Shown here: in pieces, positions 1,292 through 61,147 of the stretch
Layout of the letters: each line of letters begins with the position of its first letter
How positions within the stretch are numbered: the stretch's first letter is position 1
NCBI GenBank assembly: GCA_030637405.1
Contig: DAOWGP010000034.1
Coordinates: 1,358-65,357, forward strand
Direction of reading: 5' to 3'
DNA from: Candidatus Omnitrophota bacterium
GTDB taxonomy: Bacteria; Omnitrophota; Gorgyraeia; Zapsychrales; Zapsychraceae
Length of the DNA stretch: 64,000 nt
The notes under the pieces: generated by a model
Told to the model about the DNA's origin: nothing
Databases searched by the model: none
What the model saw: the letters and a program-made list of their open reading frames with translations, nothing else
Translations under genes and position numbers: made by a program

Positions 1292-2063
1292 AGAGAACTC
1301 TCCTTATTTTCTTACCAATATCTTCTTCCCGCATAAACGTTTCCCCAATAAGCACGCCATGGGCTCCAATCTTTCTTAACGCCTTAACTTCTGAATGTTT
1401 TTTAAATCCACTTTCCCCGACAATAACTTTTCCTTTAGGGATCTTCGGAATGATACGCGCGCAGGTTTGCATATCGACAACAAAGGCATGCAGATCACGA
1501 TTATTCACACCGATGATCTCTGCCCCGGCATCACAAGCCCTTTTAAGCTCATTTTCGTTATGAACCTCAACCAGGCAATCAAGGCCCAGAGAATGCGCTG
1601 TATCGATCAACTCCTTAAGCCTGAGATCATCTAATATACCCACAATCAATAAAACGGCATTCGCTCCATTGACAAGGGCTTCATAGATCTGGCCGTCATT
1701 AATAAAAAAGTCCTTAGCCAGGACCGGAATGTTAACAACCTCGCTGATTTGTTTTACAAATTTCGGCTTCCCAAGAAAATATTTATCCTCGGTCAGAACC
1801 GAAATAGCCGCCGCATTATTTTCCGCGTAGATCTTGGCGATCGCTACCGGGTCAAAGTTTTCGCGAATCAGACCTTTTGAAGGCGAAGCCTTTTTGACCT
1901 CAGCAATCAGCTTGATCTGTCCCGGCCCGGCGATCCTGTCCCGGAATAAATGCGGGCGCGCACATTCTTTAGCCTTCCATTTGAGTGAAAAATAAAAATC
2001 CTTTTTCTCTTTAATTAGGGCCTGCTTGTAATTCAAAATGTTTGTTAAAAAAGCTTCTGTCAT
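1278..2063 (-). CDS. trpC: Indole-3-glycerol phosphate synthase
   Basis: IAEVKKASPSKG and ISVLTEDKYFLG motifs; 261 aa; adjacent to trpD and trpF. Confidence 0.9.
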   Translation of the reverse strand: MTEAFLTNILNYKQALIKEKKDFYFSLKWKAKECARPHLFRDRIAGPGQIKLIAEVKKASPSKGLIRENFDPVAIAKIYAENNAAAISVLTEDKYFLGKPKFVKQISEVVNIPVLAKDFFINDGQIYEALVNGANAVLLIVGILDDLRLKELIDTAHSLGLDCLVEVHNENELKRACDAGAEIIGVNNRDLHAFVVDMQTCARIIPKIPKGKVIVGESGFKKHSEVKALRKIGAHGVLIGETFMREEDIGKKIRRVLYGQS

Positions 2064-2073
2064 TAAATTGCCC

Positions 2074-3093
2074 TTAAAATCTTTGTGTAAACTGTTTTAA
2101 TTCGTTAAGTTTATCCAGTGCTTTAGCCGAATCGATCGTCGCCTTGGCCATATCCATCCCTTGCGAAATACTCGTAACTTTTTCTGCGACATAAAGCGCA
2201 TAGGCGGCATTCAAGAGAACAATATCCATCTTTGGCCCGGCTTTACCGATCAATATCTCCTCACAGATACGGACATTTGTCTCTAGACCACCACCTTCTA
2301 GATCGTGCGGTTTCGCGATGCTTATTCCTAGCTCCTCCGGTGAGATGTCGTAGGAAATAACCTCATTCCCGTCATATTCACTGATAAATGTTTTGTCGGT
2401 TATCGTGATCTCGTCTAAACCATCACTGCCATGAACAACCATTGCGCGTTTTAACCCTAAATTTTTAAGCACGTGGGCCATCGGCTCAACGAGATCCCGG
2501 CTATAAACACCCAGAATCTGATGTGTCGCGCGAGCCGGATTTGTCAGCGGTCCCAAAATGTTAAAGATCGTCTCCACGCCAAGCTTTTTCCGGATTGGAG
2601 CCACATTTTTCATCGCTGGATGAAGCTTTTGGGCGAATAAAAAAGCAATTCCAACCTCATCAAGGCAAGCGCTTAAATGCGCTTGCTCAACATTTAAATT
2701 AACTCCGAGGGCCTCCAAAACATCCGCGCTTCCACATTTACTGGAAACCGAACGGTTCCCATGTTTTGCGACAGCAACACCAGCTCCCGCAACAACAAGT
2801 GCGGTTACCGTTGAAATATTGAAAGTGTTTTTCTTATCACCGCCGGTCCCGCATGTATCTAAGACATCTTCGTGCTTTGTTTCAATACCCACTACAAACT
2901 TGCGCATGATCTTGGCCGCTCCGGTAATTTCGTCTACCGTCGGCCCTTTTTCTCTAAGCGCCAGCAAGAAACCTGAAATATCCTCCTCAGGGGATTCACC
3001 CGACATGATCTCATGCATAATTTCTTCGATCTCATTTTGGGTTAAATTTTCCTTTTTTTGCAATTTCTGGATACATGTTTTCATAATAATCAA
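2074..3093 (-). CDS. trpD: Anthranilate phosphoribosyltransferase
   Basis: GTGGDKKNTFNISTV glycine-rich PRPP loop; 339 aa. Confidence 0.9.
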   Translation of the reverse strand: MIIMKTCIQKLQKKENLTQNEIEEIMHEIMSGESPEEDISGFLLALREKGPTVDEITGAAKIMRKFVVGIETKHEDVLDTCGTGGDKKNTFNISTVTALVVAGAGVAVAKHGNRSVSSKCGSADVLEALGVNLNVEQAHLSACLDEVGIAFLFAQKLHPAMKNVAPIRKKLGVETIFNILGPLTNPARATHQILGVYSRDLVEPMAHVLKNLGLKRAMVVHGSDGLDEITITDKTFISEYDGNEVISYDISPEELGISIAKPHDLEGGGLETNVRICEEILIGKAGPKMDIVLLNAAYALYVAEKVTSISQGMDMAKATIDSAKALDKLNELKQFTQRF

Positions 3094-3123
3094 TCACCCT
3101 ATCCTGTCCCTACATGATGTTTC

Positions 3124-3693
3124 CTATGTTTTCATTGTTAAAAAATTCTTTAGAATTTTCTTTCCCTCTTTTGTCAATATTGATTCAGGATGGAATTGAA
3201 CACCCCAAAGCGGAAAATCTTTGTGCCTAAGAGCCATGATCTCGCCATCGCTTGTGCGCGCAGTTATTTCGAAACACTTAGGCATGGTTTTCTTTTCAAT
3301 CACTAATGAATGATAACGTGTCGCTTCAAACGGGTTTTCAATTGCTTTAAAGATATCTTTGCCGTTATGACGGATCATCGATGTTTTTCCATGCATTAAT
3401 TTCTTAGCCCGTATGATTTTTCCGCCATACGCATACCCGATACATTGATGCCCTAAGCAAACCCCGAGGATCGGAATTATTCCGGCAAATTCACGAATAA
3501 GATCAACAGAAATCCCCGCGCTTTCGGGGCGACCGGGCCCGGGAGAAATAACGATTTGCTTAGGCCGCATGCGCTTGATCTGTGCCAGCGTTAATTCATC
3601 ATTGCGGCACACCTTCAAATCGACTCCGAGTTCTCCGAAATATTGAACAAGGTTATACGTAAACGAATCATAATTATCGATCATAAGGATCAT
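3124..3693 (-). CDS. trpG: Anthranilate synthase component II (glutamine amidotransferase)
   Basis: [18 protein letters not shown] start, class I GATase with catalytic Cys (GVCLGHQ) and HPES; ends with a TAG stop. Confidence 0.88.
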
Positions 3694-19316: not shown

Positions 19317-20465
19317 TCAAACAATGCTTGGTTCCAATTCTGATTTGTAGTTTTGTAAAAATTCCTTCTGAAACTCCTGATAACGGTCTTCGGCAATAGC
19401 CTCACGAATTTGCCTCATTAAATTAACATAGAAATACACGTTGTGAAAAGTAATAAGCTTCAGCCCCAGGATCTCATTGCTGTTCAGTAAATGGCGAATG
19501 TAACTGCGTGTATATTTCTTGCAAACACGGCACTCGCATGTCTTATCAATGGGTCCGAAATCCTTGGTATGCGTCGCGTTGCGCACAACGATGCGTCCTG
19601 CACGCGTGAATGCCGAACCATGACGACCGTAGCGCGTCGGTATGCATGTGTCGAACATATCAATTCCTTCACCGACCGCCTTGACAATTTGGTCCGGCAG
19701 GCCGATACCCATAAAGTACCGCGGCTTCTCCTCGGGCAAAAGCGGCATGACCCAATCGAGAGTCTCAAACATAACCGGTACCGGCTCGCCGACGCTCACC
19801 CCGCCGATCGCGTAACCGTCAAAGGCGATATCCATAAGTTCTCGCGCCGATTGCTCGCGCAAGTCTCGATACGTCGCGCCCTGAACAATGCCAAATTGAA
19901 ATTGATCGCCTTCCTTTTTTCGTGTCTTTAAGAAATATTCGCGGGACTGTCTGGCCCAAACGGTCGTGCGCTTGACCGATCTTTCGGCCTGCTCGCGGTC
20001 GCAGGGATACGGCGCGCATTCATCCAAAGGCATCATGATATCCGAACCGAGTACTCTTTGGATATCAACAACCTTTTCCGGCGTGAAGAATTGAACCGAA
20101 CCGTCATAATGCGATTGGAATTGGACACCTCCGTCAGTAAGCTTACGCAGTTTGGCAAGACTGAATACTTGATACCCACCGCTATCGGTCAAGATCGGCC
20201 CATCCCAGCTCATGAACTTATGCAAGCCGCCAGCCTCACCGATCACATCAAGCCCGGGACGCAGAAAAAGGTGATACGTATTCGACAAAACAATCTGCGT
20301 GTCAAATTCAAGTAAACTTTCAAACGAGAGCGTCTTGACCGTTCCGTTGGTCCCGACCGGCATAAAGAATGGCGAATCAATCACCCCATGGGCCGTCGTA
20401 AGTTTCCCTATCCGCGCTTTTGTATTTTTTTCTTGTTTTAATAATTCAAACATCTTTTTAATCAA
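19317..20465 (-). CDS. tgt: Queuine tRNA-ribosyltransferase
   Basis: GKLTTAHGVIDSPFFMPVGT and the zinc site CxCxxC...H (CECRVCKKY); 382 aa. Confidence 0.92.
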   Translation of the reverse strand: MIKKMFELLKQEKNTKARIGKLTTAHGVIDSPFFMPVGTNGTVKTLSFESLLEFDTQIVLSNTYHLFLRPGLDVIGEAGGLHKFMSWDGPILTDSGGYQVFSLAKLRKLTDGGVQFQSHYDGSVQFFTPEKVVDIQRVLGSDIMMPLDECAPYPCDREQAERSVKRTTVWARQSREYFLKTRKKEGDQFQFGIVQGATYRDLREQSARELMDIAFDGYAIGGVSVGEPVPVMFETLDWVMPLLPEEKPRYFMGIGLPDQIVKAVGEGIDMFDTCIPTRYGRHGSAFTRAGRIVVRNATHTKDFGPIDKTCECRVCKKYTRSYIRHLLNSNEILGLKLITFHNVYFYVNLMRQIREAIAEDRYQEFQKEFLQNYKSELEPSIV

Positions 20466-20612
20466 GTGAACGTCTAAAATAAAACCATACCCAATTAGCT
20501 GAAATGAATTCCCAGTCTTCTGGTCCTAATTGATTGAGTTTTTTGGTTGTTTTTTCCGCTCCGCCCCAAATAAAAACACATTTATACTCAAATTTTGTCA
20601 TTGTGCATTCTC

Positions 20613-20837
20613 TCATTTATTATACTTACAGAATTTAGACCCCTTTATCCCCGATAATATTAAGATAATGCCGACAATAATGGCCAAAATCTGGATCAAC
20701 CCGAAAACAGCCTCTCCCATAATTCCTGTCAGCAATCCCAAAGCAAGAACAATGATCCCGATAAACAAACAGCAATTGCATTTCTGTTTCTTGTTTTCAT
20801 CAGTCATGTTGCCCTCCCTTTTATTCCGACCGCACAA
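20613..20837 (-). CDS. Small hypothetical membrane protein (start probably the internal Met, about 63 aa)
   Basis: Two hydrophobic helices and a CNCC motif; no recognisable family; in an intergenic gap between VOC and tgt. Confidence 0.35.
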   Translation of the reverse strand: MCGRNKREGNMTDENKKQKCNCCLFIGIIVLALGLLTGIMGEAVFGLIQILAIIVGIILILSGIKGSKFCKYNK

Positions 20838-20865: not shown

Positions 20866-21234
20866 TTACTCAGGCTTATGGCAAACAACTTCAATATTAT
20901 GCCCATCCGGGTCAAAGACAAATGCCGCGTAATAATCAGCATGGTAATTTTCTCTGATGCCCGGCGCTCCGTTATCTTTGCCACCGGCGGCAATAGCCGC
21001 TTCATAAAAACTGTCGACTTCCCTCCGGTTATCCGCGGCAAACGCGATGTGCGTCGGCTGCTGGACACCGCGGCCCACTCCAAACCAGAATTCCGGTTTG
21101 CCGCCCTTGCCAAAACCCGACCATCCCTCAAACTCCATAGCTTCTTCAACTCCTAATGGAGCCAGTGCTTTTGAATAAAAATCTTTACTTTGCGCGTGAT
21201 CCGAAACAGCTAATCCAATGTGATCAATAATCAT
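20866..21234 (-). CDS. VOC (glyoxalase/bleomycin resistance/dioxygenase) family protein
   Basis: MIIDHIGLAVSD start, 122 aa, C-terminal HIEVV-type metal-ligand context. Confidence 0.75.
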   Translation of the reverse strand: MIIDHIGLAVSDHAQSKDFYSKALAPLGVEEAMEFEGWSGFGKGGKPEFWFGVGRGVQQPTHIAFAADNRREVDSFYEAAIAAGGKDNGAPGIRENYHADYYAAFVFDPDGHNIEVVCHKPE

Positions 21235-21280: not shown

Positions 21281-21760
21281 TTATCGATACGGCTCAAGAG
21301 CCTTTAAAAGATCGGGATTGATAAACCCGAGCTTCTTAGCCTTATCACAATATTCAACGGCCAATTTATATTGCTTTTTTTGCCAGTAAGAAATGGCCAA
21401 ATTACTATAGGCGCGCGCGTACGAAGGGTCTGTTTCAATCGCTTTTTTATAAAATGCTATAGCCTTTTCGTATCGGCCTGAACCATATTTAACAATGCCC
21501 ATGTTGTTATAGGCTTCCGCGTTGTCCGGATTAAGAACTACCGCACGCTCATAGACCTCCATGGCATCTTCAGATCTTCCGACGTCATGGTAGGCAACGC
21601 CAAGATTATTATGGGCCATAGAATGTTTCGGCGTAATTTCTACGGCTTTCTCGTAAAGAGCAATAGCCTCTTGTATTTTTCCGCTCTCATAATATATCAG
21701 GCCGAGGTTAGTATAGACATCCGAATACTCCGGATCAAGTTCAATCGCTTTTTTGTAGAG
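21281..21760 (-). CDS. TPR-repeat segment in the same frame as, and contiguous with, the upstream TMTC-like gene. It is separated from it only by one TAG (probable C-terminal part of a disrupted or read-through gene).
   Basis: Translation immediately after the TAG reads LYKKAIELDPEYSDVYTNLGLIYYESGKIQEAIALYEKAVEITPKHSMAHNNLGVAY..., textbook TPR units continuing the repeat phase of the upstream ORF. Confidence 0.6.
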   Translation of the reverse strand, partial: LYKKAIELDPEYSDVYTNLGLIYYESGKIQEAIALYEKAVEITPKHSMAHNNLGVAYHDVGRSEDAMEVYERAVVLNPDNAEAYNNMGIVKYGSGRYEKAIAFYKKAIETDPSYARAYSNLAISYWQKKQYKLAVEYCDKAKKLGFINPDLLKALEPYR

Positions 21761-23050
21761 CTAACTCGCCTCGGTAGTTTTTCCCTGGTTGTGATATTGG
21801 TTGCCAAGATTAAAATGTACCCGCGCGCTGTCCGCCGAGTGCTTCAGGGTCAATCGGTACAAACTTATCGAATCTCTCCAATAAGCATTCTGCTTAAATG
21901 TGAGTATCGAATAAAAACCAATCGGTAATGCCGCAAGAACAATGCTCAATACTTGAAATGGCCTTCTTTCATAGAGAAGAATGAATCCTTTAGCCGCGAT
22001 TAAAAATATTCCAATCGACGGAATATAAAGCCAATGTTCAGCCATGTAGGCATTAAGCGGATAAAGATTTGAACTTGGAAGTAAAGCCAGAACAAACCAC
22101 AGGACAGAGAAAAAAATAATTCCATAGCCCTCTTTCTTCCTGACTGAAAAAACATAAGCCAACACGAAAAATAATATGACCGCTCCGGCGATGGCTCGTT
22201 GGTCGTTAAAGGCAAAAGTCCCGTTACCGTATTCCATATGCAGATTAAAAGGTGCCATCAAAAGCCGTGTGTAATTCAACAGCGCCACGAAAAACCCGGG
22301 AACCCTTTGTATAAACGTCGTTGGAAAAGTCTCAGATAATAACGACTTTAACAACGTGCATCGTAAGACAATATAGATGAGGCTGAGGCTCGCGATCGGC
22401 AGAAATTGTTTGAACTTAAACCGTACCTTGAAGCTGTAATGATACAGGATCAGGAGAAGAGGCAAAATCAAGCTGTTTTCCCTTGATAAAAGGGACAAAA
22501 TATAACTCGCGCATGCAAGCAGCAGAAACGAAAACCGCTCTGCGCGCAGATATTTGATATAGAATATAAAACAAAGAGGCAGAAAAAGCGCCGTCAATGA
22601 ATCCGCACGTCCCGAAATATAGCTGACCACTTCGGTGCGCGCCGGATGCGCAACGAACAAAAGGCCGGCCAAAAGAGCCATCAACCAGTTGTCATAAAAA
22701 AGGATGGCCAGCCAAAAGACCGCCAGCGCGGCAAAAACATGAAAAACAACATTGCTGAGATGATATCCCCGAACATCAAGTTTCCAAAGCGAATAATCCA
22801 TCATGTAGGTGATCATCTGCGATGGACGGAAAAAATTGTATTTTTTTCCAATACCGACGCCAAACTTGGCTCCTGCATCGGGGGTAAACATCCTTGGGAG
22901 ATTAGACCAATCACGGATATAGGTATTATCCCTCACTAAAACATTATCGTCCCAAAGAAATTCGCCATTGAGGGAATTGCTGTAAACCATAAATCCAAGT
23001 AGGATTATTAAAACCGTACTGATAATTATGTTCGTTCTTTTTCTAAGCAT
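21761..23050 (-). CDS. Polytopic membrane glycosyltransferase-like protein (PMT/TMTC-like, GT39/DUF1736-type) with C-terminal TPRs, terminated by an in-frame TAG
   Basis: N-terminal WDDN motif in the first loop, about 10 predicted TM helices, then TPRs (VHFNLGNQYHNQGKTTEAS-stop). Confidence 0.65.
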   Translation of the reverse strand: MLRKRTNIIISTVLIILLGFMVYSNSLNGEFLWDDNVLVRDNTYIRDWSNLPRMFTPDAGAKFGVGIGKKYNFFRPSQMITYMMDYSLWKLDVRGYHLSNVVFHVFAALAVFWLAILFYDNWLMALLAGLLFVAHPARTEVVSYISGRADSLTALFLPLCFIFYIKYLRAERFSFLLLACASYILSLLSRENSLILPLLLILYHYSFKVRFKFKQFLPIASLSLIYIVLRCTLLKSLLSETFPTTFIQRVPGFFVALLNYTRLLMAPFNLHMEYGNGTFAFNDQRAIAGAVILFFVLAYVFSVRKKEGYGIIFFSVLWFVLALLPSSNLYPLNAYMAEHWLYIPSIGIFLIAAKGFILLYERRPFQVLSIVLAALPIGFYSILTFKQNAYWRDSISLYRLTLKHSADSARVHFNLGNQYHNQGKTTEAS

Positions 23051-39920: not shown

Positions 39921-39940
39921 AACTATCGGATTCGCCCCTA

Positions 39941-39973
39941 TGTAAATAAAATGGGGGATTACCCATCCCCCAT
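39941..39973 (-). terminator. Rho-independent terminator-like hairpin downstream of the 40075-40419 gene
   Basis: On the minus strand: atggggga-tgggta-atcccccat (8-bp G-rich stem), followed immediately by ttttattta. Confidence 0.55.
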
Positions 39974-40074
39974 TCGAAAATCATCCAAACCATAAAAGCG
40001 CATTTCTTAATTCATCACATTAATTCCTATTTTCCTCTACAAAGAAAACTAGGGTAGAGCGTTTGAACTAAAAA

Positions 40075-40419
40075 TTACATCGGCAATACAAGCGTTTGCA
40101 ATTCCTTGATCTTTTTATCAAGATTCTCTTTAATTTCTACAGCTTTATCTAAACGGGTTTTCAGATCATTATTATATGCCTTGGTTTTCTCAAGAAACCC
40201 TTCGATTTGACCAATTTTATCCTGAGCTCTTTTCAACTCAGCTTTTAACGAGATGACTTTCACCTTAGATTTCTGAAAATTTTCTTCAGAAACCAAACGT
40301 TTATAACGTTCGCCATTTAGCTGCTCCTGCACATAACTCGCATCTTGACTATAACGTATGGCTAAGCCACAACTTAAAACAAGCAACACAATCACGAATC
40401 CGATTAATACAGTTCTCAT
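40075..40419 (-). CDS. Coiled-coil lipoprotein, hypothetical
   Basis: Signal peptide with lipobox VLSC, remainder predicted coiled-coil. Confidence 0.55.
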   Translation of the reverse strand: MRTVLIGFVIVLLVLSCGLAIRYSQDASYVQEQLNGERYKRLVSEENFQKSKVKVISLKAELKRAQDKIGQIEGFLEKTKAYNNDLKTRLDKAVEIKENLDKKIKELQTLVLPM

Positions 40420-40460
40420 TTTTACTTACCCTCGATAATAAGGTTATTAATAGATGAGCC

Positions 40461-60103: not shown

Positions 60104-61100
60104 TCTTCAAGGCTAAAACACGGATATCATCCGGGACCATATTCATAAAGGGTTTTAATTTGACCGCATCCTTCTCTGTTGTCACAATCATTTTAATTTC
60201 CTGCCTTTGACATAACTCAACGATGCTCCCGATATCTTCGGCACAATAAGTATGATGATCCATAAACGCAAAATGTCCACCAATATCTGCCTCTAATTCG
60301 GCCAAGGTTTTGGTGAATGAATCGGGAGATCCGATACCGCAGACCGCGCAGATTTTCAGCCCTAGGGCAGACAATGTCTGAAATTCGGCCCCAGATCGCA
60401 GATCCGAGAATCCAACCGGTTTATGGATCGACTCGACGATCAAAGCTTTCGGATTAACCATATTTAGATCAGTTTTTATTTCCGCCAGGCGCTTTCGGCC
60501 GAGATTTATTTTCGTTAAAACAAATATATCCGCCCGTGACAAAGTTTTTTTGGGCTCTCTTAAAATTCCCCGCGGCAACACATGGCCGTTCCCCCACGGA
60601 TTCGTCGCATCAATAGCGACAATATCAAGATCGCGTAATAACCGCCAATGTTGAAATCCATCATCTAGCAGAAAGACATCAACTGTGTTCTTTTTCAAAA
60701 ACATTTTGGCATTTTCCACCCGACCGGCTCCGGCAAGAACCGGAATATCTAATTTCGCTCTCTGCATTGCAGCTTCATCACTGCTTTGACCTCGGTTTGG
60801 CTTTTTCTTCGCCATATATCCGCGCATGAGAATAACCGGCTGAGAACCTTTTTCTTTTAAGGCCTGAGTTATAAATCCGACGAGGGGCGTTTTTCCAACA
60901 CCGCCTACAGTAAGGTTGCCGACACTAATAACAGGACGGGGAAGCTGATATTGTTTAAATAGGCCGATTTTGTACAAAATCCGTCTCAGGGCAATAAGAA
61001 AGGTGTAAATCCATGAAAGAACCCATAAAACCATTTTGACAACAGAAACAGCCCCGCCACTCACCTGGTCCGTTGCAATTAAATATAAAAACTGCTTCAT
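60042..61100 (-). CDS. lpxK: Tetraacyldisaccharide 4'-kinase
   Basis: P-loop ISVGNLTVGGVGKTP; 352 aa. Confidence 0.9.
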   Translation of the reverse strand: MKQFLYLIATDQVSGGAVSVVKMVLWVLSWIYTFLIALRRILYKIGLFKQYQLPRPVISVGNLTVGGVGKTPLVGFITQALKEKGSQPVILMRGYMAKKKPNRGQSSDEAAMQRAKLDIPVLAGAGRVENAKMFLKKNTVDVFLLDDGFQHWRLLRDLDIVAIDATNPWGNGHVLPRGILREPKKTLSRADIFVLTKINLGRKRLAEIKTDLNMVNPKALIVESIHKPVGFSDLRSGAEFQTLSALGLKICAVCGIGSPDSFTKTLAELEADIGGHFAFMDHHTYCAEDIGSIVELCQRQEIKMIVTTEKDAVKLKPFMNMVPDDIRVLALKIEISIVNGEDAFLERIYRIL

Positions 61101-61147
61101 AATTAAGAATTACCGTTCATGCTGCGGACAACACACATACGCGTTGC

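Follow-up and report, generated by a model that had tools for sequence, protein, structure and literature searches.

We translated the minus strand of positions 21281-23050 of a 64-kb window, by which we mean the whole stretch of DNA that was analysed, and obtained 429 codons up to a first stop and, in the same frame, another 159 codons up to a second one. The premature stop is a TAG (21763→21761 on the minus strand, so that the plus strand reads CTA at 21761-21763). The features of the locus are as follows.

23050→21764, minus strand: upstream ORF of 429 codons, defined by the reading frame and its translation
Residues ~1-390 of the 429-codon ORF: predicted 11-TM GT-C-fold glycosyltransferase domain with the DD motif D34/D35
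Remainder of the 429-codon ORF, after the GT-C domain: linker, helix A of TPR1 and the beginning of helix B
21761..21763, minus strand: premature in-frame TAG in place of one helix-B residue of TPR1
21284..21760, minus strand: in-frame continuation of 159 codons, with the remainder of TPR1, four more TPRs and a conserved C-terminal capping helix (...LLKALEPYR)
21283→21281, minus strand: TAA, the ancestral stop of the full-length 589-residue gene
21284..21619, minus strand: 112-codon ORF from the first ATG/GTG/TTG past the TAG, called by Prodigal in ENA assemblies

The protein sequence that flanks the premature TAG reads ...NLGNQYHNQGKTTEAS before the stop and LYKKAIELDPEYSDVYTNLG... after it. 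When the two parts, with the stop between them, are aligned to the next repeat (...NLGLIYYESGKIQEAIALYEKAVEITP), the TAG occupies a single helix-B position of TPR1. The tail beyond it encodes at least four TPRs (TPR_1 E = 6e-42). These observations bear out the initial annotation of this DNA, which had described a single in-frame TAG at 21761-21763 that replaces one residue within a TPR helix and is followed by no more stops for 480 nt. An open tail of 159 codons that aligns with homologues up to its final ...LLKALEPYR is not what chance would be expected to leave, and on sequence grounds we take the 429-codon ORF and the continuation at 21284..21760 to be one ancestral gene, with the continuation as its 3' portion.

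TAG serves as a normal stop in this DNA. The 58 long ORFs of the window (≥120 aa, non-overlapping set) end in TAA (28), TAG (16) or TGA (14), and most of the TAG-terminated ORFs are followed by the next gene within 1-100 nt. For four TAG-terminated proteins, TrpG/PabA, FolD, ScpA and UppS, the match to the NCBIfam model extends to its last positions. The initial annotation had cited the end of trpG as a genuine TAG stop and had argued on that basis against genome-wide TAG reassignment; TrpG indeed stops at its model end, and with 15 other TAG gene ends, four of them checked against family models, the argument holds and reassignment is rejected for the window. Long in-frame extensions past other stops, which we also considered, are simply the next gene in the same frame. 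ARAGORN found no tRNA genes in the 64-kb window, hence no pyrrolysine or suppressor tRNA there. The base at position +4 after the other 15 TAG stops is G (9), A (4) or T (2), and C follows only the premature TAG (1 of 16). C at +4 is a weak termination context among E. coli termination signals.

Several further properties of the window were noted. The strand bias is unusually complete, with all 58 long ORFs encoded by the minus strand, and the GC skew of the plus strand is negative throughout the 64 kb (-0.12 to -0.21) with no switch. The sole Rfam match in the window is a c-di-GMP-I riboswitch aptamer (RF01051) at 472-614 on the minus strand (66.4 bits, E = 9e-11). Two small ORFs at 20458-20837 (minus strand), between tgt and a VOC gene, have no family assignment and are also called in L001, one of the two additional contigs described below; their products are 52 aa and 74 aa long, the 74-aa protein being Cys-rich (…KCNCC…) and having one TM segment. 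Apparent gene-free gaps at 39921-40460 and 60104-61147 proved to be artefacts of the ORF filter.

To place the membrane enzyme, we combined profile searches, structure prediction and motif comparison. Pfam and NCBIfam offered no usable match for the TM domain of the window protein, with PMT_2 (PF13231) and DUF1736 absent even at E ≤ 10, and an HMM profile of the TM domain gave 0 matches against PDB sequences. PMT_2 (PF13231) was matched by four of 11 close homologues (best E = 7e-7), the window protein itself being unmatched, while DUF1736 was matched at E ≤ 1 by none of the 11 homologues and not by the window protein. An AlphaFold2 model of the 429 residues (pLDDT 90, pTM 0.91) was then compared with the PDB using Foldseek. 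The top ~32 matches were all GT-C glycosyltransferases (probability ~1.0), with ArnT (5f15) best (E = 3e-4), followed by STT3/PglB/AglB, Pmt4, DPY19, ALG9 and Emb/Aft, at query-normalised TM-scores of ~0.45-0.54 and sequence identities of 10-16%. The 429-residue part contains eleven hydrophobic segments and has a K/R-rich N-terminus, which together place the C-terminal TPRs outside the cytoplasm; the TPR domain that follows TM11 should thus be periplasmic.

In TMTC1-4 the C-terminal TPRs are likewise non-cytoplasmic, the DD motif in the first extracytoplasmic loop is strictly conserved and catalytic, and the motifs M1-M7 are given as DD, SHKSYRP, RxD, KE(T/Q)xxT, DW, ..., ERxxY (PMC7801869). 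We inspected the invariant and near-invariant columns of 42 aligned family members against the motifs quoted in that study, and five of the seven TMTC motifs have candidate counterparts in the family, in columns that are invariant or nearly so.

DD, first loop: D34 D35
YRP: F74-R75-P76 in the window protein, YRP in the family consensus
RxD: R148-A-D150
KE..: R190-E191
ERxxY: E338-H-W-L-Y342

The WDDN loop motif singled out in the initial annotation is present as FLWDDNVLV, and D34 and D35 within it are invariant in all 42 members. The description of the gene as a multi-TM, TMTC/PMT-like glycosyltransferase with TPRs therefore matches in fold, topology and motifs, though the DUF1736 and PMT_2 models give the window protein no match. 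On the predicted structure and the conserved motifs, the gene is assigned to the GT-C class, and, because no DUF1736 match was obtained, we call it TMTC-like in fold, topology and motifs and not a demonstrated member of the TMTC family. A literature search on Omnitrophota TPR glycosyltransferases found nothing relevant.

To determine the ancestral state of the locus, we used the joined 589-residue sequence as a database query, which returned 1,461 matches, and considered the best 120 of them. All 120 are TM+TPR fusions of 543-853 aa except the window's own 429-aa product (P0001) and P0088, a fragment truncated by the end of its contig; their usual name is 'tetratricopeptide repeat protein [Candidatus Omnitrophota]'. 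Since no TPR-less members occur among these best 120 of 1,461 homologues, the comparison suggests that the enzyme cannot do without its TPR domain and would be impaired by the truncation. The closest full-length relative (P0002, 599 aa) is uninterrupted, with 65% identity over 99% coverage, and its locus shares with the window the order SpoIID, QueA, PEBP-family protein and then this gene.

At the column of the stop, this syntenic orthologue carries CCG (Pro). In a first alignment, 15 of 15 homologues continue through the column (with P, A, T, D, I, S or L) and reach the C-terminus ...LLKALEPYR, ending at the PYR motif or 1-7 residues beyond it. Of 160 family loci fetched from genome and metagenome collections, 158 show a sense codon at this column within one HSP that covers the site, and the two that have a stop are same-species contigs only (L001 and L002). 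The residues found there include A (58 loci), E (17), S (15), P (12), T (8), K (8), D (7), Q (4), L (3) and Y (1). As E, S, K, Q, L and Y, all one mutational step from TAG, occur in the column, one substitution in an intermediate that was itself tolerated suffices to create the stop. Scans of genome and metagenome contigs for a closer relative yielded nothing above ~53% identity, so that the ancestral codon is only bracketed, by the CCG of the 65% orthologue. The initial annotation had proposed a comparison of orthologues at the TAG, and the codon proves to be a sense codon in the syntenic orthologue and nearly throughout the family; orthologues that end at the same place and have a separate downstream start, which it had named as the sign of two genuine genes, were looked for and not found. 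Judged by these comparisons, the interruption is derived and not ancestral, and the two parts were ancestrally one gene.

The TM+TPR family is heavily paralogous in Omnitrophota. Adjacent copies occur on single contigs in several cases (loci L004-L160), and one MAG, JAFGHF01 Zod_Metabat.1437, holds at least seven copies (L009, L013, L024, L026, L029, L038 and L045). A second, independent interrupted copy was found on MHHC01000025.1 (Omnitrophica WOR_2 RIFCSPLOWO2_12_FULL_51_24; L081 = L139, match 1897-3489), with its in-frame stop at a different position, in the TM domain at query residue 96. This copy sets a rough background of ~1 interrupted copy in 150.

The downstream part has retained the same level of conservation as the upstream part, with identities of 65% to P0002 and 73% to P0088, and no secondary stops or frameshifts are present in its 159 codons. 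Because the tail is free of such lesions and has kept its family-level conservation, the mutation looks recent. In a three-taxon relative-rate count, changes unique to the window stood to those unique to P0088 as 12:22 upstream of the TAG and as 20:13 beyond it (Fisher p = 0.051), at most a faint, borderline hint of relaxed constraint downstream of the stop.

A 90%-identity cluster of the 429-aa product contains two more members, both from ENA assemblies, and we fetched the corresponding contigs. L001 (sample SAMN18200492, 4,796 bp) has 2 substitutions relative to the window (22495 and 21162), and L002 (sample SAMN18200497, 2,905 bp) is identical to the window; both carry the TAG at the same codon. 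The cold-seep samples were each sequenced as one Illumina HiSeq X Ten library and assembled separately with MEGAHIT, and the MAG genes were called with Prodigal (PMC9357000), which explains the deposition of the 429-aa piece as a protein. The assemblies of the window, L001 and L002 all come from one study and one sequencing platform, and the window may share reads with L002. The substitution at 22495 (L001 position 965; T in the window and C in L001 on the coding strand) is non-synonymous; in an already interrupted gene, it replaces Ser185 by Pro, five positions ahead of the conserved R190-E191 motif. The substitution at 21162 lies within the downstream glyoxalase/VOC gene.

These contigs bear directly on whether the TAG is a consensus error from sequencing or assembly that hides a sense codon of the true genome. 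MAG consensus sequences can carry errors, all the data derive from a single Illumina study, and the scanned contigs offer no closer relative for comparison. The same TAG is nevertheless present in two contigs assembled independently from two different libraries, one of which (L001) differs from the window elsewhere, making a random consensus error very unlikely. The site itself (GCGAGTTAGCTCTAC) is neither a homopolymer nor a repeat, and every assembly would have had to acquire the very same erroneous substitution, so we regard an artefact as very improbable. Programmed read-through or recoding, by a suppressor or Pyl tRNA or driven by context, would instead yield both a TPR-less and a full-length isoform, and it would account for a downstream frame that is fully intact and conserved and for the C that follows this TAG, unlike the other 15 TAG stops of the window. 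The stop is not conserved, however, with a sense codon in the syntenic orthologue and in nearly all family loci. We also found no stable or unusual RNA structure in 126 nt around and after the TAG when compared with shuffled controls (MFE -25.7 kcal/mol versus a shuffle mean of -25.5, z = -0.06), and a read-through-stimulating structure is rejected on this basis. Together with the absence of any tRNA gene in the 64 kb and the use of TAG to end ordinary genes of the window, these results leave programmed read-through with very little probability, and the odd +4 base is equally expected from a random nonsense mutation. We give similarly little credence to the related idea of a maintained leaky stop, in which a fraction of ribosomes would read through TAG-C to supply TPR-less and full-length enzymes side by side; were it true, it would be a rare example of functional stop-codon read-through in bacteria, here adjusting which substrates a membrane glycosyltransferase is directed to. 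At most trace near-cognate read-through is plausible, given the weak TAG-C context.

Alternatively, the locus could represent a genuine split into a functional 429-aa GT-C enzyme and a separate 112-aa TPR protein, translated from the ATG at 21619 and acting together with it. Prodigal calls both ORFs in the ENA assemblies, and both parts are still open and conserved. The ATG at 21619 is, however, the first ATG, GTG or TTG past the TAG and lies 141 nt downstream, inside a TPR (MAHNNLGVAY...), with no SD-like match in the 22 nt upstream of it, whereas an SD match of at least 4 nt is present at 40 of the 58 gene starts of the window. The 112-aa product has neither a signal peptide nor a TM segment that could anchor it, yet the domain from which it derives should be periplasmic, so that a two-gene split is topologically implausible. 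Re-initiation at this ATG is rejected on the same two grounds, the missing SD sequence and a product that would be cytoplasmic. Moreover, no relative shows such a split, the best 120 homologues include no TPR-less enzyme, and the exact 112-aa sequence is absent from the protein collection searched. The 112-codon ORF is thus probably not an independent gene, and a functional split appears highly unlikely.

Most probably, one member of a large Omnitrophota paralogue family has been truncated here by a nonsense mutation that is recent and specific to the lineage. The ancestral single gene would have encoded an 11-TM GT-C glycosyltransferase domain followed by a periplasmic TPR domain, the putative site of acceptor-substrate binding if TMTC and PMT enzymes are a guide. 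A sense codon of TPR1 helix B would then have mutated to TAG in this lineage, and ribosomes would stop there to release a membrane protein of 429 residues, with the catalytic TM domain complete and ~4.5 TPRs and the C-terminal cap missing. The mutation is real and occurs in the population of two or more sediment samples, perhaps alongside a sense allele. The gene is probably a recent pseudogene or else an allele that is truncated and likely crippled. We infer loss or impairment of function, while partial function is conceivable with the catalytic domain left whole. The initial annotation had left three options standing, and they can now be ranked: a nonsense mutation fits everything seen, whereas a sequencing error is disfavoured by the TAG in two more assemblies and programmed read-through by an unconserved stop that is accompanied by no RNA structure.

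As such, the interruption is an ordinary event, one more lineage-specific nonsense mutation in a multi-copy family. For annotation, the ORFs of 429 aa and 112 aa that Prodigal calls are best joined and marked as a single disrupted gene. Of wider use, the heavily expanded Omnitrophota 'tetratricopeptide repeat proteins' of this family are TMTC-like GT-C glycosyltransferases with predicted periplasmic TPRs. Their membrane domain has no curated model: no Pfam or NCBIfam model detects it reliably, and the proteins are annotated merely by their repeats.

The locus resembles ordinary bacterial nonsense pseudogenes in having a single premature stop, an otherwise intact frame, an intact orthologue, a lineage-specific stop and no recoding signals. 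Nothing notable sets it apart from them beyond an intact catalytic domain and the recurrence of the stop in two or more samples. With respect to the enzyme, the predicted architecture is that of the eukaryotic TMTC1-4 proteins, O-mannosyltransferases of the GT-C/PMT clan, which have the same N-terminal 11-TM GT-C domain and C-terminal non-cytoplasmic TPRs. The similarity extends to the segment LLFVAHPARTE of the window protein, which resembles LLFAVHPIHT of human TMTC3 (quoted in PMC7801869). Unlike the TMTCs, all of which match DUF1736, the window protein and the 11 homologues give no match to it, and unlike TMTC1-4 the gene is bacterial (Omnitrophota), has only ~5 TPRs and, in this copy, is interrupted by a stop. 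Among solved GT-C structures, the predicted TM domain comes closest to those of ArnT, PglB/STT3 and PMT, but the soluble domain here is composed of TPRs, in contrast to the MIR or periplasmic α/β domains of those enzymes.
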